Part shown: positions 9,027 to 56,168 of the stretch, piece after piece
Numbering within the stretch: position 1 is the first letter of the stretch
How the letters are laid out: every line of letters begins with the position of its first letter
Position numbers and translations under genes: made by a program
The notes under the pieces: model-generated
The model's database searches: none
What the model was told of the DNA's origin: nothing
What the model saw: only the letters and a program-made list of their open reading frames with translations
Source: Candidatus Doudnabacteria bacterium
GTDB taxonomy: Bacteria; Patescibacteriota; Doudnabacteria; UBA920
Length of the DNA stretch: 64,000 bases
Reading direction: 5' to 3'
Assembly (NCBI GenBank): GCA_016218585.1
Contig: JACRDK010000030.1
Span: forward strand, 24,277-88,276

Positions 9027-9749
9027 ATGAAAAAACTTTCGGTTATTATACCGGCGTATAATGAAGAACATCGCATAGGCTCCACTTTGGGAGCAATTCA
9101 TAATTATCTTTCCAAGCAAAATTATGAATATGAAATTATCGTTGTTATTGATGGAGCCAAGGACAAGACCGCGGAAGTAGTTTCGGGCATGCAGAGCCAG
9201 ATAAAAAATTTAACGGTTTTAAATAACAAACAAAACCACGGCAAGGGCTGGGTGGTGCGCCAGGGGATGCTTCAGGCTGTTGGCGAGTATAGACTGTTTA
9301 CGGACGCCGACAATTCCACTTCCATTGAGCAAGTAGAAAAGTTTTTTCCGTTTATGAGCCAGGGTTATGATATTGTAATCGGTTCCATAGAAGTTGAGGG
9401 CGCGCAAATAAATGAACACGCCCAGTGGTATAGAAGGTTTTTAGGCCATTGGTCAAAGTTGTTAATTCGCGTGGTTGCCGGAGTCTGGCAAATTCACGAC
9501 ACCCAGCGCGGCTTTAAATTATTTACCGCTAAAGCTGCGGAAAGAATTTTTTTCCAGGCTAAGATTGACCGTTTTGGTTTTGACATAGAAATTCTGGCCG
9601 CTGCCGTAAAGTGCGGCTATAAAATTAAGGAAGTTCCGGTAGTGTGGAATAACGCCGGGGAATCGACAGTTAGTTTAAAAAGTTACCTTGAAGTTTTTAA
9701 AGATTTGCTTCGCGTAAGATGGTACTTATGGACCGGCAAGTATAAATAA
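9027..9749 (+). CDS. Family 2 glycosyltransferase (dolichyl/polyprenyl-phosphate sugar transferase-like)
   Basis: LSVIIPAYNEEHRI at N-terminus, DxD-type motif FTDADNS, typical GT2 (DPM1-like) architecture of about 240 aa. Confidence 0.85.
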   Translation: MKKLSVIIPAYNEEHRIGSTLGAIHNYLSKQNYEYEIIVVIDGAKDKTAEVVSGMQSQIKNLTVLNNKQNHGKGWVVRQGMLQAVGEYRLFTDADNSTSIEQVEKFFPFMSQGYDIVIGSIEVEGAQINEHAQWYRRFLGHWSKLLIRVVAGVWQIHDTQRGFKLFTAKAAERIFFQAKIDRFGFDIEILAAAVKCGYKIKEVPVVWNNAGESTVSLKSYLEVFKDLLRVRWYLWTGKYK

Positions 9750-9753
9750 TTTT

Positions 9754-11640
9754 ATGAAGTTTTTTAGCACACAGCACCAGCATAGTTTCCTTTCAAATTT
9801 GTTAGAAAGTGCGGCAAAGATTTTAAGCTTTGCCGCAGTTTTTGCGTTTATTGCCTCGCCGATTTTTCCCGTAAACTACGCGCTGGCGCAAAAATCCGAA
9901 ACCACTTATATGGTCAAATTAAAAACAGGATTCGGCGAAAACTTGTTAAGCAAAGTCGGCTCAAACATTCGCCACCGTTTTGTTTCCGCCGAGTCGCCGG
10001 TTTTTTATAATATTTATAGTTTTAGTTCCGGTTATTCAGCGGCAGTTTTAACGGACTATTTAAAAAATAAAGCGGAATATTTGGAAGAGCAAAAACCTTT
10101 AGCAGCTTCTTCCGTTTATGTGAACGATCCCGGGTTTTCCACCGATCCGTTAAATATTGATAAACAATGGGCTTTAATAAAGGCGGGTTTTGATAAAGCC
10201 TGGGAAAAAACCACCGGAAGCAAAAGCAATGTTGTGGCGGTAATAGATACAGGAGTAGACGAAACCCACCAGGACTTATCGGCAATTAATTTTGTAAAAG
10301 GTTTTAATTTTATTTCCAACCAGGAAATTGCCACAAGCACCAATTCGGACGACAACGGCCACGGAACATTAGTTACCGGCGTTCTTGGCGCCACCGCAAA
10401 CAACGGTTTGGGAATAATTGGAACCAACTGGCAGATTTCCGTTATGCCTCTTAAAGCGCTTGACGCAAACGGCAAAGGCGAAGCGGCGGATGTGGCCGAA
10501 GCTATTGTTTGGGCCACTGACCACGGCGCGCAGTTTTTAAATATGAGCATTGGCGGCATTGGCTTTGGCCATGACACTACTTTGGCTAACGCCGTTACTT
10601 ACGCCTTTAATAAAAATGTTTTACTGGTGGCGGCCGCCGGAAATGACGTGGCGGCAACAGGCAGCAATTTGGACCAAAGCCCGGTGTTCCCAATTTGCGA
10701 TGATAATAATTTTAATATGGTAATTGGCGTTTCCGCCAGCGATCAAAATGATTTAAAGCCGGACTTTTCCAACTACGGCAGAAATTGCATAGATGTAACA
10801 GCCCCCGGAAAAAGAATTTTGTCCACAATAAATTATGACCCGCTTACAAAAAAAGCATCGCCTAGTTCTTATGCCTATGCTTCCGGAACCTCTTTGGCAG
10901 TGCCTTTTGTGGTCGGCCAAGCCGCTCTAATAAAGGCGCTGTATCCGTTTGCTACTAATATTCAAATACGCGACCGAATAATTACCACTGCAGACCCAAT
11001 TGATAATTTAAATCTTACTCAGTGCGCCGGCGGCCCTTGCCGCGGCCTTTTGGGAACCGGAAGAATTAATGTTTTAAATAGTTTGCAGACCGCGATAGCC
11101 CAGGGGTATGCGGAAGGCGACTTGGTAAAGGAAGAAAGCACCGGGGCAATGTATCAAATAATTGGCGGGCAAAAAAGATTAATTTCCCCATTTGTTTACA
11201 ACCAGCGTTTCAGCGGTTCTAAATTAAAAACTCTTAGCGCCGGGGAATTGGCCTCTTTGCCGGACGGAAGCTATGTTACGCCAAACGACGGCACTCTGGT
11301 AAAGCTGGACTCCGACCCCACGGTATATGTTATTGCCAACGGACAAAAACAGCCCGTGTCGTATCAGGTTTTTTTGCAAAGAAAAATGAATTTTGCCAGC
11401 GTAAACACTTTAAGCTTTTCGGAAGTTAATTCCTGGATTACCGGAAGCTTTTATCCGCCGGAAGAGGGAACCTTGATAAAATCAGATAAAGATAAAACCG
11501 TTTATTGGGTTGTTGGCCAAACCTTGCACCCGATTAACTATGGATTTTTTATGGAGCGGGGTTTGAATGTTTTTCCAATCTTGGTAGTTTCTGAAAAAGA
11601 TATTGTCAGTTTTGCAAAAGGGGAGAGTTATATAAGATAG
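9754..11640 (+). CDS. Secreted subtilisin-like serine protease (peptidase S8) with N-terminal propeptide and three C-terminal roughly 58-aa repeats
   Basis: Catalytic triad motifs VIDTGVDETHQDL (Asp), HGTLVTGVLGA (His), GTSLAVPFVVGQAAL (Ser). Signal peptide. C-terminal repeats GTLVKLDSDPTVYVIANGQKQPVSYQVF... repeated three times. Confidence 0.9.
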   Translation: MKFFSTQHQHSFLSNLLESAAKILSFAAVFAFIASPIFPVNYALAQKSETTYMVKLKTGFGENLLSKVGSNIRHRFVSAESPVFYNIYSFSSGYSAAVLTDYLKNKAEYLEEQKPLAASSVYVNDPGFSTDPLNIDKQWALIKAGFDKAWEKTTGSKSNVVAVIDTGVDETHQDLSAINFVKGFNFISNQEIATSTNSDDNGHGTLVTGVLGATANNGLGIIGTNWQISVMPLKALDANGKGEAADVAEAIVWATDHGAQFLNMSIGGIGFGHDTTLANAVTYAFNKNVLLVAAAGNDVAATGSNLDQSPVFPICDDNNFNMVIGVSASDQNDLKPDFSNYGRNCIDVTAPGKRILSTINYDPLTKKASPSSYAYASGTSLAVPFVVGQAALIKALYPFATNIQIRDRIITTADPIDNLNLTQCAGGPCRGLLGTGRINVLNSLQTAIAQGYAEGDLVKEESTGAMYQIIGGQKRLISPFVYNQRFSGSKLKTLSAGELASLPDGSYVTPNDGTLVKLDSDPTVYVIANGQKQPVSYQVFLQRKMNFASVNTLSFSEVNSWITGSFYPPEEGTLIKSDKDKTVYWVVGQTLHPINYGFFMERGLNVFPILVVSEKDIVSFAKGESYIR

Positions 11641-19438: not shown

Positions 19439-20425
19439 ATGCCAAAAGTTGTTATTGTTCAGGTAATATATAATACAAAGAAATTTATTGAGCCGGTGTT
19501 CGGCGCAATTTTTAACCAAACGCACAAAAATTTTGAAGTTGTGGCTGTAATTTCCGGCAACGATGACGGCGGTAAAGAATTGCTCATGCAAAAGTTTCCG
19601 CAGGTAAAGATAATCGATCCCGGCTATAATATAGGTTTTGCCAAGGGCCATAATTTGGTTTTTTCCCAATTTAGCGCGGACTTCTATCAGTTGGTAAATC
19701 CGGATTTTATTATGGAACCGGATTATGTTGAACAGATATTAAAAGTTTTTCAAGATGAAAAAATTGGAGCGGCAACCGGAAAACTGTACCAATTTAAAGA
19801 TTTAAGATTTAAGATTGAAGATTTTAGAAGCAATAAAATTTTAGACACAACTGGGGTCACTATTGGCAAATCAGGAAGAGCAAGGGATAGGGGGCAGCAC
19901 GAAGAAGACAGGGGGCAATATGATAAGAGTACAAATATACAAGCTGTCTCAGCGGCCGGCGCAATGTATCGCGCCTCCGCCCTACAAGCTACAAGCTACA
20001 AGCTACAAACTAGAGTAGAATTTTTTGACGAAGACTTCCATTCTTATTGGGAAGATGTGGATTTGGCCTGGCGGATGAGCAATGCCGGTTGGCAGTGCAA
20101 GTTTGCGCCCTTGGCTGTTGGTTATCATGGCAGGGGAGCAGGGTCTTCCAAAAACGGTTATATGGATGTTGCGGGGTTTGTTAAACACCACAAGACATTG
20201 TCGCCAAGGATCAGGCAGTTAAATTATCAAAACCACATTTTAATGTATGTAAAAAACAGTCCGTGGTTTTATCCGCAGTTTTTTGTCAGGGAATTTTTTA
20301 TGCTTGGCTATATTTTACTTTTTGAAATTAGCACATTAAAAGTTTTGCCGCAGATGCTCCGGCTGCTGCCAAGAATTTGGGAAAAAAGAAAGCTAATAAT
20401 TGATTCCACTCATTCACGGCCGTGA
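19439..20425 (+). CDS. Family 2 glycosyltransferase
   Basis: N-terminal VVIVQVIYNTKKFIEPVFGAIFNQTHKNFEVVAV and D..D motifs; contains an in-frame (tacaagc)x3 microsatellite at about 19983-20006. Confidence 0.8.
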   Translation: MPKVVIVQVIYNTKKFIEPVFGAIFNQTHKNFEVVAVISGNDDGGKELLMQKFPQVKIIDPGYNIGFAKGHNLVFSQFSADFYQLVNPDFIMEPDYVEQILKVFQDEKIGAATGKLYQFKDLRFKIEDFRSNKILDTTGVTIGKSGRARDRGQHEEDRGQYDKSTNIQAVSAAGAMYRASALQATSYKLQTRVEFFDEDFHSYWEDVDLAWRMSNAGWQCKFAPLAVGYHGRGAGSSKNGYMDVAGFVKHHKTLSPRIRQLNYQNHILMYVKNSPWFYPQFFVREFFMLGYILLFEISTLKVLPQMLRLLPRIWEKRKLIIDSTHSRP

Positions 20426-20436
20426 ATGAGTGGAAT
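20401..20436. repeat. 36-bp perfect palindrome gattccactcattcacgg/ccgtgaatgagtggaatc overlapping the stop codon of the GT2 gene
   Basis: Read directly; the reverse complement of the left arm equals the right arm; the TGA stop at 20423-20425 lies inside it. Confidence 0.7.
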
Positions 20437-22833: not shown

Positions 22834-24630
22834 ATGCCAAATATCACAGCGCAAGAATTAAGAAATAAATACCTTAATTTCTTCAAATCAAAAAACCATA
22901 CCATCATTCCTTCGGCGTCTTTGGTGCCAGAAAATGATTCCAGCGTGCTGTTTACAACCGCAGGAATGCATCCACTGGTTCCATATCTTTTAGGACAACA
23001 GCATCCGGGCGGAACCCGTGTAACCGACGTGCAAAAATGCATACGCACCGGCGACATTGAAGAAGTTGGCGACAACACCCATTTAACATTCTTTGAAATG
23101 TTGGGCAATTGGAGTTTTGGCGACTACTTTAAAAAAGAAGCGATTACCTGGAGCTTTGAATTTTTAACCGGCAAAGAAAATTTAAACATTCCGCTTGAAC
23201 GTTTGGCGGTATCAGTTTTTGCCGGAGACAATGATGCTCCGCGCGACGAAGAAGCCGCGGCAATTTGGAAATCTTTAGGCGTGGCGGAAGATCGCATTGC
23301 TTATTTGCCAAAAGCAGATAACTGGTGGATTGCCGGCACAACCGGACCATGCGGGCCGGATACAGAAATGTTTTATTGGATAGACGACGGGACTCCGGCG
23401 CCAAAAAATTTCCAGGAAACCAAGGAAGATAAGCGTTGGGTGGAAATCTGGAATGACGTGTTTATGCAATTTGAAAAGCATGAAGACGGCACGCTTACCC
23501 CTTTGCCAAAACCAAATGTGGATACCGGAATGGGCTTAGACAGAACTTTGGCAGTTTTAAACGGCCAAACCTCGGTTTATGACACTGAACTATTCAAACC
23601 AATGTTTGATGTTTTAGCGATGGACCAGGAAATAATGACTAATGACGAAGTTAAAAAAGCCAGAATTATTTTGGACCATATTCGCGCCGCGGTATTTATT
23701 GTGAGCGACGGAGTTGAGCCTTCAAATAAAGATCGCGGGTATGTTCTAAGAAGGCTTCTAAGGCGCGCGATGGTAATGGGCAGGCTTTTAAATTTAAAAC
23801 TCCACTGGCTTAAAGCTTTGGTTGGCCAGGTTATTTTTGCCTATGCTGAAAGTTATCCGGACCTAACCGCAAAGTCAGAACAAATTTTTGCAACAATTGA
23901 AGGTGAGCAAAAGAAGTTTGAAAGCACATTGGAAAAGGGATTAAAACAATTGGAGTCAAGAATCAAGAGTCAGGAATCAGGAATTAGTGGCACGGATGCC
24001 TTCGATTTGTATCAAACCTATGGTTTTCCGAAAGAGTTAACCAAAGAGCTGGCTGTTCAATCGGGGCAAGTTTTTGATGCGGAAAAAGAAAAAGAGTATG
24101 AAACGGAATTCAAAAAGCATCAGGAACTTTCCCGTACGGCTTCTGCCGGACAGTTTAAGGGCGGGCTAGCGAGCCACTCTGACAAGATTGTGCGCTTGCA
24201 TACCGCCACCCACTTAATGAACGCGGCTTTGAGAAAAGTTTTAGGAACAGACGTTTGGCAAAAGGGGAGTAACATTACCGAAGAGCGCACCAGGTTTGAT
24301 TTTACCCACAATCAGAAAATGACAGACGAAGAAAAGAAGCAAGTGGAAGATTTGGTTAATGGCTGGGTGCAGCGCGATTTAACCGTCAAAAAAGAAATTA
24401 TGCCTTACGAAGAAGCCCGCAAGCTTGAAGCCATTGGCGTGTTCGGAGAAAAGTATGCGGAAACCGTTTCTGTTTATACGGTGTTTGACCCCAATACAAA
24501 TGAAGTTGTTTCCCGCGAATTTTGCGGCGGTCCGCATGTTGAACATACCGGGGTAATCGGCAAATTTAAAATCCAAAAGGAAGAAGCTTCTTCCGCCGGG
24601 GTTCGAAGGATCAAAGCGGTGATAGAATAG
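22834..24630 (+). CDS. alaS: Alanine--tRNA ligase, short form lacking the C-terminal C-Ala domain
   Basis: N-terminal class II core FFKSKNHTIIPSASLVP...FTTAGMHPLVPY, WSFGDYFK, editing-domain HTATHLMNAAL and CGGPHVEHTG motifs; ends ...GVRRIKAVIE. Confidence 0.9.
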   Translation: MPNITAQELRNKYLNFFKSKNHTIIPSASLVPENDSSVLFTTAGMHPLVPYLLGQQHPGGTRVTDVQKCIRTGDIEEVGDNTHLTFFEMLGNWSFGDYFKKEAITWSFEFLTGKENLNIPLERLAVSVFAGDNDAPRDEEAAAIWKSLGVAEDRIAYLPKADNWWIAGTTGPCGPDTEMFYWIDDGTPAPKNFQETKEDKRWVEIWNDVFMQFEKHEDGTLTPLPKPNVDTGMGLDRTLAVLNGQTSVYDTELFKPMFDVLAMDQEIMTNDEVKKARIILDHIRAAVFIVSDGVEPSNKDRGYVLRRLLRRAMVMGRLLNLKLHWLKALVGQVIFAYAESYPDLTAKSEQIFATIEGEQKKFESTLEKGLKQLESRIKSQESGISGTDAFDLYQTYGFPKELTKELAVQSGQVFDAEKEKEYETEFKKHQELSRTASAGQFKGGLASHSDKIVRLHTATHLMNAALRKVLGTDVWQKGSNITEERTRFDFTHNQKMTDEEKKQVEDLVNGWVQRDLTVKKEIMPYEEARKLEAIGVFGEKYAETVSVYTVFDPNTNEVVSREFCGGPHVEHTGVIGKFKIQKEEASSAGVRRIKAVIE

Positions 24631-28733: not shown

Positions 28734-28829
28734 TAATTTTAACACTTGGTGAAAGTTATTAAGTTATCCAGCTCATCAAGTTTGTGCGTATTAACTTTAT
28801 AAACTTTATAAATTTTAAGAACTATTTTT

Positions 28830-29219
28830 ATGGCTCGTATCGCAGGAATTAACATACCAAACGAAAAACGCATCGAAGCGTCTTTGCCTTACATTTACGG
28901 AGTCGGCTTAAGCCTTTCCAAAAAAATTCTGGCCGCTGCAAAAGTTGATCCGAACAAGCGCACCAAAGATTTAAGCGAAGCAGAACTCGGACGCATTCGC
29001 GAATTTATTGAAAAGAGCTTCAAAGTCGAAGGTGAATTAAGACAGCAGGTTCTGTTAAACATCAAGCGCTTAAAAGAAATCGGCGCTTATCGCGGTATTC
29101 GCCACATTAGAGGTTTACCGGTAAGAGGACAGAGAACCAAGACCAATTCCCGCACCCGCCGCGGCAACGTTCGTAAGACCGCCGGATCCGGACGCAAGAA
29201 CGCATCGGAAAAGACCTAA
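28830..29219 (+). CDS. rpsM: 30S ribosomal protein S13
   Basis: [26 protein letters not shown]...[18 protein letters not shown]. Confidence 0.95.
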
Positions 29220-35016: not shown

Positions 35017-36450
35017 ATGAAAAAGACCGAACTTCTTTTTAACTTAATTTCCATTCCGGTGGACGCTATTTCCTTGCTTTGTGCGGGAATTGCGTCTTTT
35101 TATTTGCGCCAAAAAACCACCACCATTGTCGGGCCAATTATTTACCAATTGGAAATAAACAGTTTCCTGTCCGTGGTCTACAAAATAATTTTGTTTTTAA
35201 TTATCCTGTTTGCGCTGCTTGGTTTGTATAACTTAAAGGGCACCCGCAAATTTATTTCTGAGTTGGGCAGGATTGTCGTCGGCGAGTCGCTCGGGCTTTT
35301 GCTAGTTATATTATTATTCTTTTTTAATCAAAATATTTTCCCATCCAGGTTCATAATTTTGGCTACTTGGGGTTTAGGGATAGTTTTTGTTATTTGCGGC
35401 CGTTTAATTTTAAAACTTTTCCAGACATTTTTGTTTGCTAAAAATATCGGCCTGCATAAATTAATTGTTATAAAAGGCGGCGTGGAGCAGCCGGTTATTG
35501 AGAGCGTTTATAAAAACAGGCGCAATGGCTACGAAATTGTAGCCGAATTGCCGGTCAATGAAAAACTTTTGGAAAAACTGGAAGAGTTTTACAACCGCGG
35601 ACAAATAGACGAAATTCTCCAAACTAACGCCGGATTGGGTGACGCTGATAATTTAAAATTGGTTCAGTTTGCCCGCGGCAAAGGGCTAAAGTTTAGTTTT
35701 GTTCCAAATTTGTTCGAGGTGCAGCGCAACATTATTGAAACAGAAAGCGTGAATGGCTTGCCGGTAATTAGTTTAAAAAATACCCCGTTGGACGGCTGGG
35801 GAAAAGTTATAAAAAGAATTTTGGATGTTGTTGTGAGTTTTGTTTGCCTGTTGTTAACCTCGCCGCTTTTTTTAATAATTACAATTGCAATTAAACTTGA
35901 TTCCAAAGGCAAAGCAATATACTCCGCCTTGCGCGGAGGCCGCGGAAAAGATTTTCGGTTTTACAAATTCCGCAGCATGTATCAGCACTTAAGCGTTGGA
36001 AAAGAATATGGCGGGGAAAACGCGGAAAAAATCAGGCAGGAGCTGTGGCATAAAAATGACCGCGGCGGGGAAAATGGCCCGTTCTTAAAAATTAAGGACG
36101 ACCCCAGGGTTACTAAAGTTGGGAAGTTTTTGCGCCGCAGCAAGTTAGACGAAATTCCGCAGTTTTGGAATGTATTAAAAGGGGATATGAGCATGGTTGG
36201 TCCCAGGGCTCATGTTTTGGACGAAGTTGAACGTTATAGGAACCGCTATCCAAGAATGTTTAGCATTAAGCCGGGAATTTTTGGGCTTTCCCAAATTGCC
36301 CAGGTATCCTGGCCGGACTTGCCGTTTGAAGAAGAAATTCGCCTAAATACTTTTTACATAGAAAATTGGTCCGTCTGGCTGGACATAAAAATTTTGGCAA
36401 AGACTTTTTGGCTGTTATTTTTTGCCAAAAAACCAAAAACCGATTATTAA
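35017..36450 (+). CDS. Polyprenyl-phosphate sugar phosphotransferase (initiating glycosyltransferase, WbaP/WcaJ-like)
   Basis: N-terminal TM bundle, CoA-binding-like central region, C-terminal bacterial sugar transferase domain (MSMVGPRAHVLDE..., PGIFGLSQIAQVSWPDLPFEEEIRLN...YIENWSVWLDIKIL). Confidence 0.85.
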   Translation: MKKTELLFNLISIPVDAISLLCAGIASFYLRQKTTTIVGPIIYQLEINSFLSVVYKIILFLIILFALLGLYNLKGTRKFISELGRIVVGESLGLLLVILLFFFNQNIFPSRFIILATWGLGIVFVICGRLILKLFQTFLFAKNIGLHKLIVIKGGVEQPVIESVYKNRRNGYEIVAELPVNEKLLEKLEEFYNRGQIDEILQTNAGLGDADNLKLVQFARGKGLKFSFVPNLFEVQRNIIETESVNGLPVISLKNTPLDGWGKVIKRILDVVVSFVCLLLTSPLFLIITIAIKLDSKGKAIYSALRGGRGKDFRFYKFRSMYQHLSVGKEYGGENAEKIRQELWHKNDRGGENGPFLKIKDDPRVTKVGKFLRRSKLDEIPQFWNVLKGDMSMVGPRAHVLDEVERYRNRYPRMFSIKPGIFGLSQIAQVSWPDLPFEEEIRLNTFYIENWSVWLDIKILAKTFWLLFFAKKPKTDY

Positions 36451-50999: not shown

Positions 51000-51299
51000 A
51001 TGGGAAACGATTATTTGAAGAGAGAACCAAGCAAAACAGAAAAAATGATTTACGAGCTTGTAATGGCGCAGAACTCTATGGAAAAGGGTTTGTGGTCTAC
51101 TTCCAGCTTAGTTATGGTTTTAGCAATTTTAACCAAGCAAGATCCAAAAGCTATTGCTGAATTAATGGTAAATGGCGACGAAAAATTAAGAGAATTTAGC
51201 GGGAAAATTAACGAAGAAATTAAAAAGTTAGAAGAAGAAAAGCATAAAGGCCACGATCACGCTAAAGAAGAAAAACCAGCCGAAGAAGCCAAGGCCTAA
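51000..51299 (+). CDS. Hypothetical small protein (Lys/Glu-rich C-terminus)
   Basis: 99-aa ORF, no motif recognised. Confidence 0.45.
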   Translation: MGNDYLKREPSKTEKMIYELVMAQNSMEKGLWSTSSLVMVLAILTKQDPKAIAELMVNGDEKLREFSGKINEEIKKLEEEKHKGHDHAKEEKPAEEAKA

Positions 51300-51313
51300 C
51301 CAAAAATTAAACC

Positions 51314-51401
51314 CACTATATTACTATATTGTAATATAGTGAAAATAAAAAAATTCACAACAAAATTAACAGGCACTCTATTACTCCAGTGTAATAGACT
51401 G
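51314..51401. promoter_or_regulatory. Pair of related palindromic operator-like sites (CAC-T[A/C]TATTAC-N6-GTAATA[T/G]A[G/C]-TG), centres 60 bp apart, immediately upstream of the NUDIX gene
   Basis: Site 1 at 51314-51341 cactatattac tatatt gtaatatagtg is perfect. Site 2 at 51374-51401 cactctattac tccagt gtaatagactg has one mismatch. Both are 11-6-11 inverted repeats. Confidence 0.55.
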
Positions 51402-51411
51402 ATAAGAAAAT

Positions 51412-51840
51412 ATGGAGCAAGGAAATCAGCAAAGACCAATAGTCGGTATAGGCGTGATGCTTTTTAAAGATGGAAAAATTTTATTGGGTAAAAGAAAGGG
51501 TCATGTTGGTTTTGGCACGTATGGCTGGCCAGGTGGCAAGCAAGAGTTTAAGGAATCTTTTGCAGCTTGTGCCAAGCGAGAGGTTATGGAAGAAGCCGGA
51601 ATCGAAATTAGCGATATAAAATTTTTAAGGCTGATGAACTACATTTCTGAAAACGGAACTCATTTTTGCGATATTCAATTAACTGCTCAATGGTTTTCCG
51701 GAGAGCCTAAAACATTAGAATCAGACAAATGCGAAGGCTGGCAATGGTATAATATAAATAATTTACCCGAGCCGATGTTTGAACCGACGATAACCGCCAT
51801 CGAAGCGTATAAAACAGGAAAAAACTTTTTTGACAACTAA
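51412..51840 (+). CDS. NUDIX hydrolase
   Basis: Nudix box GWPGGKQEFKESFAACAKREVMEEAGIEI (Gx5Ex7REUxEExGU). Confidence 0.85.
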   Translation: MEQGNQQRPIVGIGVMLFKDGKILLGKRKGHVGFGTYGWPGGKQEFKESFAACAKREVMEEAGIEISDIKFLRLMNYISENGTHFCDIQLTAQWFSGEPKTLESDKCEGWQWYNINNLPEPMFEPTITAIEAYKTGKNFFDN

Positions 51841-51842
51841 TT

Positions 51843-52421
51843 ATGAAATACATAATTTTTTCAGGGACAACAGGCTCGGGAAAAGATACTATAATTAACA
51901 GGTTGCATGAAGATTTAAAAAACCTTCAAATTGAGCCAGTTAAAAGAGCTTGGTATTATACAACAAGAAAGGTTGACCGAAAGGGTGAAAACCCTAATAG
52001 GAAAGACAAAATTAGCGATGAGGAATTCAATGAAAAAGTATCAAAGGGTGAAATTATTTTAGATCATAAAAATTCAAATTATCAAGTTGGTTATCCGTCA
52101 GAAATTCTAAACGAAAAGTCAGGAATTATTATATTTAATATAGCTGTGTGGGCGGCAAAGCAACTTCAGGATTATGCTTTACAAAATGATGGACGTGCCG
52201 TAACTATTTTTTTAGATGCTCCTAAGGAACAGCGGATTGGTAGAATTAAACATCGGGATGGGTTGAGCGCTGACGAGTCCGTGATTTTTAAGGTTGAAAA
52301 CGATATAACAAAATCTGAACATGCAACAGGATATAATTTAGTAGTTCAAAATAAAGATGGCGATTTGGAAAAAAATTACGAGATTATTTTAAGTAAGGTT
52401 AAAGAATTTTTAAATGCTTAA
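51843..52421 (+). CDS. Guanylate-kinase-like P-loop nucleoside monophosphate kinase (paralog 1)
   Basis: P-loop FSGTTGSGKDT; YTTRKVDRKGENPNRKDKISDEEFNEKVSKGEIILDH...NYQVGYP parallels the guanylate kinase TTR.pR.gE..G.dY.F.s.eeF...GeflE.a...gn.YGT region. Confidence 0.65.
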   Translation: MKYIIFSGTTGSGKDTIINRLHEDLKNLQIEPVKRAWYYTTRKVDRKGENPNRKDKISDEEFNEKVSKGEIILDHKNSNYQVGYPSEILNEKSGIIIFNIAVWAAKQLQDYALQNDGRAVTIFLDAPKEQRIGRIKHRDGLSADESVIFKVENDITKSEHATGYNLVVQNKDGDLEKNYEIILSKVKEFLNA

Positions 52422-52959
52422 ATTTATTACCGGAAATAAAACAAAGTTTAATGAGGTGCAAGCGGCTCTCGCGCCTATTAAGGTTGAACAAATTAATATA
52501 GATTTACACGAAATTCAAGAAGTTGATCCTAAAAAGATAATTGAACACAAGCTAAAAGAAGCCTTTAATCATTATAAGGGCGAATTTATTATAGATGACA
52601 GCTCTTTATTTTTAAGCTGTTTTAATTACAAGCTTCCCGGCCCGTTGATAAAATGGTTTAATGATTCTATTGGCACAAAAAAGATTTATGAAATGTGCAA
52701 AAAAATGGGTGACCAAAAAGCCAGAGCCACAACCTTTATTGGGTACGCAAAAAGTCCTAAAGAAATTGAATTTTTTGAAGGAACGATGAATGGCAAAATT
52801 ATAAAACCAAAAGGTAAATATAATTTTGGCTACGACCCGATTTTTGTGCCAAACGGCAAAAAAGAAACCCTCTCGCAAATGAAAGCGTCTGGAAATTTTT
52901 TTAGTAGCCCCCGCGGGTTAGCGGTATTAAAGTTGAAAAAATATTTAAGTGTTAAATAG
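52414..52959 (+). CDS. rdgB: Ham1/RdgB-family non-canonical purine NTP pyrophosphatase (ITPase)
   Basis: FGYDPIFVPNGKKETLSQMKASGNFFSSPRGLAVLKL matches the ITPase C-terminal signature (FGYDP.F.P.G...T.AEM....K...SHRG.A); N-terminal ITGNKTKF. Confidence 0.8.
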   Translation: MLKFITGNKTKFNEVQAALAPIKVEQINIDLHEIQEVDPKKIIEHKLKEAFNHYKGEFIIDDSSLFLSCFNYKLPGPLIKWFNDSIGTKKIYEMCKKMGDQKARATTFIGYAKSPKEIEFFEGTMNGKIIKPKGKYNFGYDPIFVPNGKKETLSQMKASGNFFSSPRGLAVLKLKKYLSVK

Positions 52960-52962
52960 AAT

Positions 52963-53562
52963 ATGAAGATTATTATTATTTGTGGTCCTACAGCCTCGGG
53001 CAAAGATTCTGTAATAGATGAAATGTATAGGGAACTAAATCAAGAGTATCCTGGAAAAGTATCACAGGCAACTTACTTTAAAACAAGGGCTGCCAGACCA
53101 CAGGAGAAAATAGACAAATATTTTATTTCTGAAGAAGAGTTTGAGAAAAAAAGAGGTTCAGGGGAAATTCCAGATGAATTTTGGGGAGAGGTAAGTAATT
53201 ATCGCGTGGGGTATTCAATTAATGAGTTTACAAAATCAGAAATTGTTTTAGTAAATATTGATGACAAAAAAGCTAGAAATTTAAAAGAAGTTGCCCAACA
53301 AAGCAACAACGAAGTTCTTTCTATATTTTTACATGCCCCGGAGGAAGTAAGAAAACAAAGATTTATGTCCCGTGAAGGATGGCTAATTTACGAACCTGCT
53401 GAATATAGGTTAAGTCATGATGTCACAGACCCTAATCCTGAAAATCACAAAGATTTTGATCTGATTGTGGAAAATAAAGAAGGTGCGTTGGCGGAAACAA
53501 TGAAGGAAATTATGCCCGCGGTAAAAGAGTTTGTTGAATCAAATAAAACAATTAAAAATTGA
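52963..53562 (+). CDS. Guanylate-kinase-like P-loop nucleoside monophosphate kinase (paralog 2)
   Basis: P-loop CGPTASGKDS; FKTRAARPQEKIDKYFISEEEFEKKRGSGEIPDEFWGEVSNYRVGYS; divergent paralog of 51843-52421. Confidence 0.65.
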   Translation: MKIIIICGPTASGKDSVIDEMYRELNQEYPGKVSQATYFKTRAARPQEKIDKYFISEEEFEKKRGSGEIPDEFWGEVSNYRVGYSINEFTKSEIVLVNIDDKKARNLKEVAQQSNNEVLSIFLHAPEEVRKQRFMSREGWLIYEPAEYRLSHDVTDPNPENHKDFDLIVENKEGALAETMKEIMPAVKEFVESNKTIKN

Positions 53563-53567
53563 GATAA

Positions 53568-56168
53568 ATGAAATCAGTTAGACTTTCAAGCCATATAAAG
53601 CCCGAACGATACCGATTGTTTATTAAACCAGATTTAAAGAGGTTTATTTTTGAGGGTGAAGAAACGATTTATCTTAATATTGAAAAACCGGTAAATGAGA
53701 TTACACTTCATACTAAAGAGCTTAAAATTTTGCAGGCAAAATTTAGAATCAAAAATTATGAATTAAGAATTAAGAATAGGGACATACGGTACAACGAGCA
53801 GAATCAAACCGTAACATTTAAGTTAAAACAAACAGTTAAAGCGGGGAAAGGGGAGTTGTCTTTAAAGTTTACCGGCATTTTAAACGATAAAATGAGAGGT
53901 TTTTACAGAAGCCAGTATAAGTCCAAAAACCAGCAAAAACACCTTGCTACAACGCAATTTGAGGCCACAGATGCACGCAGGGCTTTCCCATGCTTTGACG
54001 AGCCCAGCGCCAAGGCTATTTTTGACGTCACCTTAATGGTTCCAAAAAAGTTAGCTGTGGTTTCCAACACAATTGAATCTGAAGTTTTAGAGCACCAAGG
54101 TGAATATAAAACCGTTAAGTTCGCGCCAACGCCAAAAATGTCTACCTATTTATTAGCGTTCATTGTTGGCGACTTGGAATATATTGAAGGCAGAACGCGG
54201 AACAGCGCGGAAAAGGCCGGCAGCGCGGAACAGCGCGGAAAAAATACAAATTCCGGTACGCTAGTTAGAGTCTTTACCACGCCGGGCAAAAAGCACCAGG
54301 CAAAATTCGCGCTCGACACCGCAATCCGCTGCTTGGAATTTTATAACAGCTATTTTGATATTCCATATCCGCTGCCGGTTTTGGATTTAATTGCCATTCC
54401 GGATTTTAACAGCGCCGCTATGGAAAATTGGGGCGCGATAACTTACCGCGAGTCAGCCTTGCTGATTGACGAAAAGAATTCATCTCTGTCTTCTAAACAG
54501 TGGGTGGCAATTGTAATTGCCCACGAAATTGCGCACCAATGGTTTGGCAATTTGGTAACAATGGAGTGGTGGACGCATTTGTGGCTAAACGAAGGCTTTG
54601 CTTCCTATATGGAATATTTATGCACCGACAAATTATTCCCGCAATGGAATATGTGGGAGCAATATGTGGCGCAAAGATTCAACACCGCGCTGGAACTGGA
54701 CTCGCTTACCAACACCCATCCAATTGAAGTTGAGGTTCACCACCCGGAGGAGATTAGCGAAATTTTTGACGCGGTGTCTTATGCTAAAGGTTCGGTAGTT
54801 ATCCGCATGCTGGCAGAATATTTGGGCGAGAAAACTTTTCGCGACGGTTTAAGATATTATTTAAAAAAACATTCCTACCAAAATGCTTCAACCATACATT
54901 TGTGGGAAGCGTTTGAAAAAGTTTCCGGAAAACCGGTAAAAAAGTTAATGCTTAATTGGACTTCCGCGCCCGGATATCCGCTAGTTCGAGTTGTGGAAAA
55001 AGAAAAGCAGTTAGTATTAATGCAGTCTCGCTTTTATTCCAGCGCGATTTCCAAAGCATCGTCTACAGACAAAACCATTTGGCAAATTCCTGTTACCATT
55101 AAAAACGGCAAAAAAATTTCCAAACATTTATTGGGGGCGAAGTCAATTAAAATTCCTAAAACCTCCAAAACCTGGATTAAATTAAACGCCGGGGAAACTT
55201 CGTTTTTTAGAACCGATTATCCGGCGCAAATGCTTGGCGCTTTGAGCAATGGGTTGCCCCAGCTTTCAGCCATAGACAGGCTTGGCGTGGTAAGGGATGC
55301 GTTTACTTTGTCCGAGTCGGGAGATTTACCCGCCACGCAAGCTTTGGAGTTGGTTAAACATTTTAAAAATGAAAAAGACTACAATGCCTGGCTAATGATT
55401 TGTTTTGGCCTTGGGAACATTGGCGGCCTGGCCCGCAACTTAAAATCTTACCCGCTCTATGAAAAGTTCGCTTTAGGAATAATTCAAAATATTTTGCAGA
55501 CGGTCGGGGTCAAAGAGGCAAAAGGCGAAACCGGCGCCCAGGTGCTTTTGCGCAGCTTAATTTTGCAGCAAGCGGTAAAATGGGGCGATAAAAAAACAGT
55601 TGCCTGGGCTTTGGCGCAATTTAACAAAAACTCTCCGGTCCCCGTAAATTTGCGTTCTGTTGTTTATTTTGCCGCCGCCCAGTTTGGTTCAAGCAAGGAG
55701 CATGCAAAGTTAGTTAAAATGTACACCCAAGAGGAGATGCAGGAAGAAAAAGACCGAATAGGCAGAAGCCTGGCGCATTTTAAAAATCCGGAATTATTAA
55801 AAAAGACTTTGGCCTTTGCTTTAAGCAAACAGGTAAGAGACCAGGACGCGCCGTTTATTATTGCCGCGGTTTTCCGCAACTGGGCAGGAAGCGCCATTGC
55901 CTTGGATTTTGTTAAAAAGCATTGGGGTGAGCTGCTTAAGCGCTACGCTTCTGGCTTGAGCATGATTTCCAGAATAATCGGCACAATGGATAATTTTTAC
56001 TCGGAAGAAAAAGCAAAAGAAATAGAAAAGTTTTTTAAAGCACATAAAGCTCCAGGAGCGAAGCGTTCTATTAAACAAACCTTGGAAAAAATTCGCTCAC
56101 AGGCGGCCTGGCTTAAGCGCGACGGCAAACCATTGGACAACTGGTTATTAAAACAAAATGAAAAATAA
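53568..56168 (+). CDS. pepN: Aminopeptidase N (M1 family zinc metallopeptidase)
   Basis: GAMEN exopeptidase motif (AAMENWGAITY), HEIAHQWFGNLVTMEWWTHLWLNEGFASY (HExxH-x18-E), ERAP1-like C-terminal domain. Confidence 0.9.
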   Translation: MKSVRLSSHIKPERYRLFIKPDLKRFIFEGEETIYLNIEKPVNEITLHTKELKILQAKFRIKNYELRIKNRDIRYNEQNQTVTFKLKQTVKAGKGELSLKFTGILNDKMRGFYRSQYKSKNQQKHLATTQFEATDARRAFPCFDEPSAKAIFDVTLMVPKKLAVVSNTIESEVLEHQGEYKTVKFAPTPKMSTYLLAFIVGDLEYIEGRTRNSAEKAGSAEQRGKNTNSGTLVRVFTTPGKKHQAKFALDTAIRCLEFYNSYFDIPYPLPVLDLIAIPDFNSAAMENWGAITYRESALLIDEKNSSLSSKQWVAIVIAHEIAHQWFGNLVTMEWWTHLWLNEGFASYMEYLCTDKLFPQWNMWEQYVAQRFNTALELDSLTNTHPIEVEVHHPEEISEIFDAVSYAKGSVVIRMLAEYLGEKTFRDGLRYYLKKHSYQNASTIHLWEAFEKVSGKPVKKLMLNWTSAPGYPLVRVVEKEKQLVLMQSRFYSSAISKASSTDKTIWQIPVTIKNGKKISKHLLGAKSIKIPKTSKTWIKLNAGETSFFRTDYPAQMLGALSNGLPQLSAIDRLGVVRDAFTLSESGDLPATQALELVKHFKNEKDYNAWLMICFGLGNIGGLARNLKSYPLYEKFALGIIQNILQTVGVKEAKGETGAQVLLRSLILQQAVKWGDKKTVAWALAQFNKNSPVPVNLRSVVYFAAAQFGSSKEHAKLVKMYTQEEMQEEKDRIGRSLAHFKNPELLKKTLAFALSKQVRDQDAPFIIAAVFRNWAGSAIALDFVKKHWGELLKRYASGLSMISRIIGTMDNFYSEEKAKEIEKFFKAHKAPGAKRSIKQTLEKIRSQAAWLKRDGKPLDNWLLKQNEK

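Follow-up and report, generated by a model that had tools for sequence, protein, structure and literature searches.

What reads two long palindromes that stand side by side ahead of a NUDIX hydrolase gene in a member of the Patescibacteria? The stretch of DNA concerned, called the window here, comprises 64,000 nucleotides of a Candidatus Doudnabacteria genome (GenBank assembly GCA_016218585.1, contig JACRDK010000030.1, forward-strand positions 24,277 to 88,276), and the two palindromes, site 1 and site 2, lie directly upstream of a row of NUDIX, kinase and Ham1 genes. An earlier note, drawn from the letters of the window alone, took them for the paired operators of a dimeric repressor that forms a loop. 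Patescibacteria (Candidate Phyla Radiation, CPR) have tiny genomes and few regulators, and almost nothing is known of their transcriptional control. Comparison with related genomes indicates that sites 1 and 2 are probably operators of a Patescibacteria-specific subfamily of TrpR/HisR (YerC/YecD) helix-turn-helix (HTH) proteins and that they would thereby control nucleotide house-cleaning genes. The elements are as follows.

51314..51341, unstranded: site 1, 28-bp dyad CACTATATTAC-TATATT-GTAATATAGTG, arms complementary at 11/11 positions
51374..51401, unstranded: site 2, 28-bp dyad CACTCTATTAC-TCCAGT-GTAATAGACTG, arms complementary at 10/11 positions
51300..51411, + strand: intergenic region holding both sites, 112 nt

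Two Palindromes in One Intergenic Region

The layout described in the earlier note was reproduced from the coordinates. Both elements are 11-6-11 dyads, one perfect and the other with a single mismatch, a C.C opposition at arm position 3. Their centres are 60 bp apart with 32 nt between the facing ends, and the NUDIX ATG (51412) follows 10 nt beyond the end of site 2. Site 1 begins 14 nt past the stop of a 99-aa open reading frame (ORF) and is close to a 14-0-14 palindrome. The two sites are identical at 22/28 positions, and at arm position 5 they differ by a symmetric change from A-T to C-G. What the earlier note had built on the spacing, namely about six helical turns and hence a phased pair looped by a repressor, finds no specific support. 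A distance of 60 bp corresponds to about 5.7 turns at 10.5 bp per turn, the closest syntenic relative has a single site (see below), and pairs about 60 bp apart are not a feature of the family.

When the full pattern was searched with up to three mismatches, sites 1 and 2 were found alone in the 64 kb, against a mean of 0.02 in shuffled sequence. Relaxing the search to six mismatches from the consensus gave one extra, marginal match in the window, at 35135 (6 mismatches, 6/11 pairs). The short core TATTAC-N6-GTAATA by itself was not significant in the 64-kb window. Similar flanks, resembling AAAATTAA, stand ahead of each site and hint at a local duplication, and a unit of about 60 bp may tentatively be supposed to have given rise to the two sites in this way. 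TRF did not call a 60-bp repeat, and the likeness of the surroundings of the two sites is limited to these short flanks.

A Site Family in Patescibacteria

One genome per GTDB species was scanned with the 19-base pattern CACTNTATTAC-N6-GTAATANANTG, which gave 27 loci. It was found that the motif CACTNTATTAC-N6-GTAATANAGTG recurs in genomes of Patescibacteria, to which all non-archaeal matches belong save two. The metagenome-assembled genomes (MAGs) matched bear the labels Saccharibacteria, Doudnabacteria or Patescibacteria and often hold several sites each. In one related MAG (L008; locus numbers are our own), a 28-mer identical to site 1 of the window stands about 30 nt upstream of rplA. Single matches in Bacillus and Dysgonomonadaceae were isolated and unconnected and were set aside. 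The Methanosarcinales matches (among L002-L027) are likewise irrelevant, as they fall at the 3' end of a conserved protein-coding gene with a product ending in ...ALYYRYVIE*. Read by eye, the product is presumably RNA polymerase subunit H/Rpb5-like. The archaeal match is a coding coincidence, and a naive census of the motif would be contaminated by it.

Comparison of 79 distinct sites gave the family form yACT-NNNN-TAC-N6-GTA-NNNN-AGTr, 28 bp long. In the arms, ACT at positions 2-4 and TAC at positions 9-11 are conserved, and positions 5-8 are occupied by three to four Watson-Crick pair types with the symmetry kept. The variant of the repeat differs genome by genome. As will be described, a pair of copies brackets a regulator gene, and this pair is the sole occurrence in most 20-kb regulator loci, which makes the sites a low-copy family and not a high-copy repeat.

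A TrpR-Like Gene Enclosed by Copies of the Site

At two loci (L001 and L011), two identical copies of the motif enclose a 163-aa gene at a distance of 0-7 nt. The product matches Pfam PF01371 (Trp_repressor) with E = 6e-11, and NCBIfam TIGR02531 (YerC/YecD) at 39-44 bits, which is borderline against the cut-off of 42.2. It also matches PDB entries 3FRW, 3G1C and 3KOR by sequence, all of which are TrpR-like (YerC-family) proteins. An AlphaFold2 model of the protein is all-helical, with a mean predicted local distance difference test (pLDDT) score of 84. The first ~100 residues of the model superpose on 3FRW, 3G1C and 3KOR with template modelling (TM) scores of 0.82-0.90, and E. coli TrpR comes next in the Foldseek ranking. 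Model residues ~92-160 form two extra helices, a C-terminal extension of ~60 aa. From its sequence and predicted fold, the 163-aa gene is thus identified as encoding a TrpR/YerC(HisR)-family HTH protein with a C-terminal extension. A word-indexed search gave 182 proteins of about 163 aa as close homologues, and a 50%-identity library contains 433 representatives at E <= 1e-10, of which many are 150-165 aa long and matched over their full length. A search of the literature found no paper that ties the TrpR family to Patescibacteria.

To measure how general the enclosure is, a metagenome scan with the family alignment was used. It gave 50 loci, and after removal of duplicates and addition of L001, L079 and L080, 41 non-duplicate loci were retained. 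A palindrome was scored when at least 9/11 arm pairs flanked a 6-bp centre, either in the 95 nt ahead of the gene or in the 60 nt or so past its stop. An upstream palindrome was present at 35/40 evaluable loci (median gap to the ATG, 16 nt) and a post-stop palindrome at 32/39; for comparison, 3.75% of random 95-nt segments from the same loci reach >=9/11. The remaining loci mostly hold recognisable imperfect or shifted palindromes, and two further close homologues, L079 and L080, show the same bracketing. The site family is therefore tightly and specifically associated with the TrpR-like regulator gene.

The sites also change together with the protein. Between L038 (8886-9912) and L041 (3646-4920), the flanks are 90-97% identical and the 5' third of the regulator gene is common. 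The HTH and C-terminal part of the regulator and both bracketing palindromes differ together (GATAC/TATGGA versus CATAC/AGGAGT). A third site in these two loci, upstream of a downstream camelysin-like gene, is of the GATAC type in both. Across the family, the type of arm tracks residues of the recognition helix: x-G-T goes with GATAC, x-R-T-I-T with TTCATAC and E/D-H-T-I-A with TGCAWTAC.

Some genomes carry more than one type of arm. One Doudnabacteria genome (L009) has two: two copies of ACATTCATAC stand 136 bp apart, 10 and 146 nt ahead of thyA (778-941), and one copy of CACTATATTAC lies within a CYTH-domain gene (1307-1334). Mixed arm types are likewise carried by L041 and L044. Taken together, these three loci suggest that some genomes encode more than one paralogue of the regulator.

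A different kind of gene was also found in such an enclosure. At L033 (89-870), a pair consisting of a ribbon-helix-helix (RHH) antitoxin and a RelE/HigB-like toxin is bracketed by copies of CACTATCATAC-ACTCCC/T-GTATGATAGTG, in the same layout as around the regulator gene 3.5 kb off.

Conservation at the NUDIX Operon and at Other Genes

The closest syntenic relative available (L078, GCA_964520505.1) has a NUDIX protein 69% identical to that of the window. The gene order S30AE-SecA-...-small ORF-NUDIX-Ham1-M1 peptidase-SecDF-sigma factor is common to both, with NUDIX, Ham1 and M1 peptidase contiguous in the relative. There, a single site, CACTGTATTAC-TTTCTT-GTAATACAGTA, lies 5 nt past the stop of the small ORF and 12 nt before the NUDIX ATG, a position equivalent to that of site 2 in the window. 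This site is 27/28 identical, spacer included, to the copies on either side of that genome's regulator gene (L001). A small ORF of 103-108 aa precedes the NUDIX gene here (9629-9955) and at two further loci, L081 (3162-3473) and L084 (9685-9996). The small ORFs have no Pfam or NCBIfam match, and likeness in sequence to the 99-aa ORF of the window was read for the L078 ORF only. The pairing of a small ORF with NUDIX is conserved between the window and three other Patescibacteria loci.

Sites were found near several other genes. A copy stands ~30 nt upstream of rplA in two genomes and 10 nt upstream of thyA (thymidylate synthase), where a second copy lies 136 bp away. A gene for a camelysin-like secreted protein is near a site in three loci, and another secreted-protein gene is as well. 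Genes that follow the regulator near sites encode a PurN-like protein, a GT4 glycosyltransferase, a ribulose-phosphate epimerase and a small lipoprotein. Most of the sites that do not bracket the regulator end 10-41 nt ahead of a start codon (NUDIX, rplA, thyA, camelysin-like and secreted-protein genes).

The GT4 gene carries a site within its coding sequence. In two Doudnabacteria (L018, 5145-5172; L004, 3409-3436), the site lies in frame at the same codons (residues ~326-335). The proteins are 71% identical and the site 25/28 nt identical, whereas its flanks have diverged much further. In the arms, the replacement of an A-T pair by a compensating C-G pair comes at the cost of I-to-L and I-to-R substitutions.

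Comparison with HisR and TrpR

The B. subtilis protein YerC is HisR, a TrpR-family repressor that binds 20-bp palindromes of the form cacTTTA-N6-TAAAgtg, and TrpR itself binds TGTAcTnGTnnACnAgTACA; HisR is autoregulated in about half of genomes (PMC9413887). The candidate regulator is a homologue of HisR in sequence and fold (PF01371, TIGR02531, PDB 3G1C, 3FRW, 3KOR). The sites resemble HisR operators in being palindromes with an outer CACT...AGTG and a 6-bp centre, the rest of the consensus not being common. In both systems a site stands upstream of the regulator's own gene and the consensus varies by lineage. Unlike HisR, the protein described here has ~60 extra C-terminal residues, its gene is bracketed on both sides and its hosts are Patescibacteria. 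The genes near its sites are also not histidine genes but NUDIX/Ham1, rplA, thyA, GT4 and genes for secreted proteins.

The likeness to E. coli TrpR is in the fold, with Foldseek TM scores of about 0.65-0.70. To this may be added, as further points of likeness, that TrpR is a symmetric dimer, reads half-sites containing ACT, is autoregulated and places several dimers in tandem on an operator. In contrast to TrpR at its trp, aroH and trpR operators, the identity is 16-21%, the TrpR consensus TGTACTnGTnnACnAGTACA differs and the ligand pocket is not conserved. The kind of system proposed here, a TrpR/HisR repressor with its operator, is already known. What is new is the 28-bp site, the extended protein and the sites that bracket the regulator's own gene.

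A Probable Mechanism and the Points Against It

We infer from these comparisons binding by a TrpR-like protein and repression, together with an oligomeric state, a ligand and the presence of the regulator in the genome of the window, as follows. A regulator of ~163 aa, consisting of a TrpR-like N-terminal domain and ~60 helical residues, would be encoded elsewhere in that genome. On each 28-bp dyad it would sit as a symmetric oligomer. This could be a dimer, but the long site and the C-terminal extension bring a dimer of dimers into consideration as well. With 10 nt between site 2 and the NUDIX start codon, and site 1 another 32 nt upstream, bound protein would keep transcription from starting at, or reading through into, the NUDIX-kinase-Ham1-kinase row, which serves nucleotide house-cleaning and salvage. 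As TrpR responds to Trp and HisR to His, a small-molecule co-repressor would probably be sensed.

The operator interpretation of the earlier note thus gains from the recurrence of the motif, its conservation and a candidate factor, while its argument from phasing and looping is not supported. That note had proposed a search for further copies and for an autoregulated transcription factor, and had regarded conservation ahead of orthologous operons as telling. Further copies do occur in related genomes, one of them upstream of the orthologous operon in the closest syntenic relative, and the TrpR/YerC-family gene, bracketed in most loci, is the candidate for the factor.

Several observations weigh against this reading. 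The absence of an adjacent regulator gene, already remarked in the earlier note, was confirmed: Pfam searches of the neighbouring genes found none within ~7 kb of the sites. Moreover, tblastn found no TrpR/YerC-like homologue in the 64-kb window, and none of the named NCBI homologues of the regulator carries an accession from the same series as the window's MAG. The 112-nt gap holds no convincing + strand sigma-70-like promoter. NUDIX orthologues at 61-65% identity have no site upstream, so control of NUDIX would be lineage-specific. The sites are 28 bp long as opposed to 20 bp for HisR and TrpR, and the published consensus is not matched. Some sites, moreover, are placed where a classical operator makes little sense, in the gap between two convergent genes (L010, L020) or inside coding DNA (GT4 in L004 and L018, hisS in L016). 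The copy past the regulator stop goes with the regulator gene and not with the next gene, as it is kept even ahead of a convergent neighbour (L045, L051). Finally, phylogeny confounds the link seen between the recognition helix and the type of arm.

If the proposed assignment to a TrpR/HisR-type regulator is right, it would provide a concrete regulator-operator pair in a large family and a searchable motif for the reconstruction of regulons. Candidate targets would then include nucleotide house-cleaning and salvage genes, thyA, rplA, cell-envelope glycosyltransferases and secreted proteins. It can be put to the test in the few Saccharibacteria that are cultivable and genetically tractable. The bracketing, together with a recognition helix and sites that change jointly, offers a natural system for studying the evolution of repressor specificity.

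Alternative Explanations

The palindromes might act as RNA instead. They would then be stem-loops (intercistronic stabilisers, processing sites or terminator-like elements) in a transcript running from the 99-aa ORF into NUDIX, and the link with the TrpR-like gene would be incidental or the protein would bind RNA. Both elements are indeed predicted to fold as stable hairpins if transcribed (minimum free energy, -24.2 kcal/mol for 125 nt; z = -4.8), the arms co-vary with complementarity kept, copies stand directly past stop codons, and the site between convergent genes at L010 resembles a bidirectional terminator in the A and T tracts beside it. Symmetric co-variation of the arms fits a hairpin, or equally a dyad read by a symmetric protein of drifting specificity. 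However, asymmetric spacers are found reading either way with respect to the regulator gene, and so to the transcribed strand (AGTCGT/ACGACT; TATCTA/TAGATA). On the sense strand, the mismatches of imperfect copies show no wobble bias (14 of G-U type, 16 of A-C type, 26 other). The spacer is itself palindromic in 10/79 distinct spacers, which yields perfect 28-bp palindromes through the centre. Promoter-like elements overlap the site in 15/40 regulator upstream regions. In the best cases (L033, L046, L052, L062), the -10 element abuts or sits in the left arm and the predicted start falls inside the palindrome, so that the transcript could not form the stem; the elements read TTGACA-17-TATACT in L033 and TTGTAA-17-TATAAT in L046 and L052. 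In the window, an intrinsic terminator was rejected as well: the stems of both sites are AT-rich and followed on the + strand by A-rich sequence with no T tract, as opposed to the evident terminators elsewhere in the window, which have GC-rich stems with A/T tracts. The 112-nt gap gave no + strand terminator and a lone scan match on the - strand, where no gene ends, and Rfam gave no match for the region of sites 1 and 2, either at the gathering threshold or with a permissive E-value. Free orientation and palindromy of the spacers, the lack of G-U bias, promoter overlap and arms that track the recognition helix together favour an operator that acts as DNA, as judged from the sequences, and an RNA function is considered unlikely.

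Recombination offers another account, in which the sites are boundaries of exchangeable modules (dif/pdif 11-6-11 or repetitive extragenic palindromic (REP)-like) and the pair in the window is a scar or an attachment point. REP elements with their REP-associated tyrosine transposase (RAYT) gene, and the pdif (XerC/D) modules of Acinetobacter plasmids, are cases in which short palindromes bracket a gene or module; a RAYT is a Y1 (IS200/IS605-like) transposase, and REP copies are extragenic and number from tens to hundreds. The palindromes described here are likewise genome-specific and bracket a gene, and their 28-bp, 11-6-11 geometry resembles that of Xer sites such as dif and pdif. The regulator gene and the toxin-antitoxin pair of L033 are both bracketed by copies with identical spacers, and the HTH part with both flanking sites was swapped between near-identical genomes. 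However, no recombinase or transposase was found next to a site, either in the window or at the other loci inspected, and the bracketed gene encodes an HTH protein without a catalytic domain. The sites upstream of NUDIX and rplA and those in GT4 hold their positions upstream of or within orthologues across genomes, which would not be expected of mobile scars. The absence of a linked recombinase, the low copy number, the positionally conserved targets and the arms that track the recognition helix weaken the cassette account, which we regard as improbable. A REP/RAYT system in particular was rejected on the HTH nature of the bracketed gene, which is not a Y1 transposase, on copy number and on the location of some sites in coding DNA. 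An Xer/dif site was also rejected: the geometry agrees, but the window has two copies with centres 60 bp apart, related genomes have several each, no recombinase is among the neighbouring genes, and cumulative GC skew climbs monotonically through the region of the sites with no switch, unlike at a chromosomal dif.

The protein could also bind the sites for purposes at the level of the chromosome, as roadblocks or insulators, domain boundaries, or organising sites like parS or matS. This would suit the coding-DNA sites (GT4 in L004 and L018) kept by compensatory changes that cost amino acids, the sites between convergent genes, the bracketing of the regulator gene on both sides whatever its neighbours, and the lack of a recognisable promoter at the sites of the window. 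It agrees poorly with the position of most non-bracketing sites 10-41 nt before start codons and with the promoter elements that overlap many upstream copies. The precedent in the family is classical repression (PMC9413887). A role of this kind therefore has a low probability. The post-stop copies, the sites between convergent genes, those in coding DNA and the bracketed toxin-antitoxin pair nevertheless keep alive, beside the repressor that we favour, looping between bracketing sites (perhaps via the C-terminal extension), a roadblock or insulator, and a cassette or recombination function. A remnant of two clustered regularly interspaced short palindromic repeats (CRISPR), or a chance pair of AT-rich palindromes, is effectively refuted. 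Repeats of 28 bp around a 32-bp spacer do have a CRISPR-like geometry, but there are two copies only, identical at 22/28 positions, where an array has at least three near-identical repeats with cas genes or a leader. No cas gene lies within ~7 kb on either side. Single copies of the motif stand upstream of genes in relatives, and chance alone would give 0.02 per window.

NrdR boxes are 16-bp palindromes upstream of nrd genes, usually about 31-32 bp (about three turns) apart. They came into consideration through the CACTATAT-like half-sites, the AT-rich and paired palindromes and the context of nucleotide metabolism. A pair of NrdR boxes was rejected, as the sites here are 28 bp long, 60 bp apart and tied to a TrpR-like gene and not to nrdR.

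A bolder extension of the operator model, which we consider doubtful, is a hitherto undescribed, Patescibacteria-wide "self-bracketed" module in which the gene of a TrpR-like protein is enclosed by the 28-bp sites of that protein. Helix and sites would diversify or be exchanged together, near-identical genomes included, making many orthogonal classes of specificity, with copies selected even in coding DNA. Such a module would be an exchangeable regulatory cassette or a selfish element, standing between an autoregulated repressor and the REP/RAYT or pdif modules. These bracket a gene with genome-specific palindromes too; the differences are that the gene bracketed here is an HTH regulator with no linked recombinase, and that the copies are few and hold conserved positions upstream of orthologues. 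The pair in the window would be a dispersed target.

Genes and Other Elements of the Window

All genes around the sites are on the + strand. Those next to the intergenic region are the following.

51000..51299, + strand: conserved 99-aa ORF, precedes the NUDIX gene; no Pfam or NCBIfam match
51412..51840, + strand: NUDIX hydrolase gene, Pfam PF00293; first gene downstream of the sites
51843..52421, + strand: P-loop nucleotide kinase (guanylate-kinase-like), Pfam PF00625/PF13238; 2 nt from the NUDIX gene
52414..52959, + strand: Ham1/ITPase (non-canonical purine NTP pyrophosphatase), Pfam PF01725; 8-nt overlap with the kinase
52963..53562, + strand: second P-loop kinase, assigned by Pfam
53568-56168, + strand: M1 aminopeptidase gene, 5 nt past the second kinase

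The M1 aminopeptidase gene may be co-transcribed with the NUDIX-kinase-Ham1-kinase row. On the upstream side lie HD, dCMP-deaminase-like, DUF218 and SecA genes. MBI5530913.1, from a Candidatus Doudnabacteria MAG, has the same sequence as the window's NUDIX protein (100% identity).

Two further long and perfect palindromes were observed in the window, both centred on CGGCCG. One, CCCTGACATAAATTACG-CGGCCG-CGTAATTTATGTCAGGG (1114-1153), lies directly past a gene end. The other, GATTCCACTCATTCA-CGGCCG-TGAATGAGTGGAATC (20400-20435), is found at a gene junction and has the same outer CACT...AGTG as sites 1 and 2. These palindromes may be another class of operator or terminator-like stems. At 28754-28862, the window matches Rfam RF00140 (Alpha operon ribosome-binding-site leader) with 40.3 bits, barely over the gathering score.

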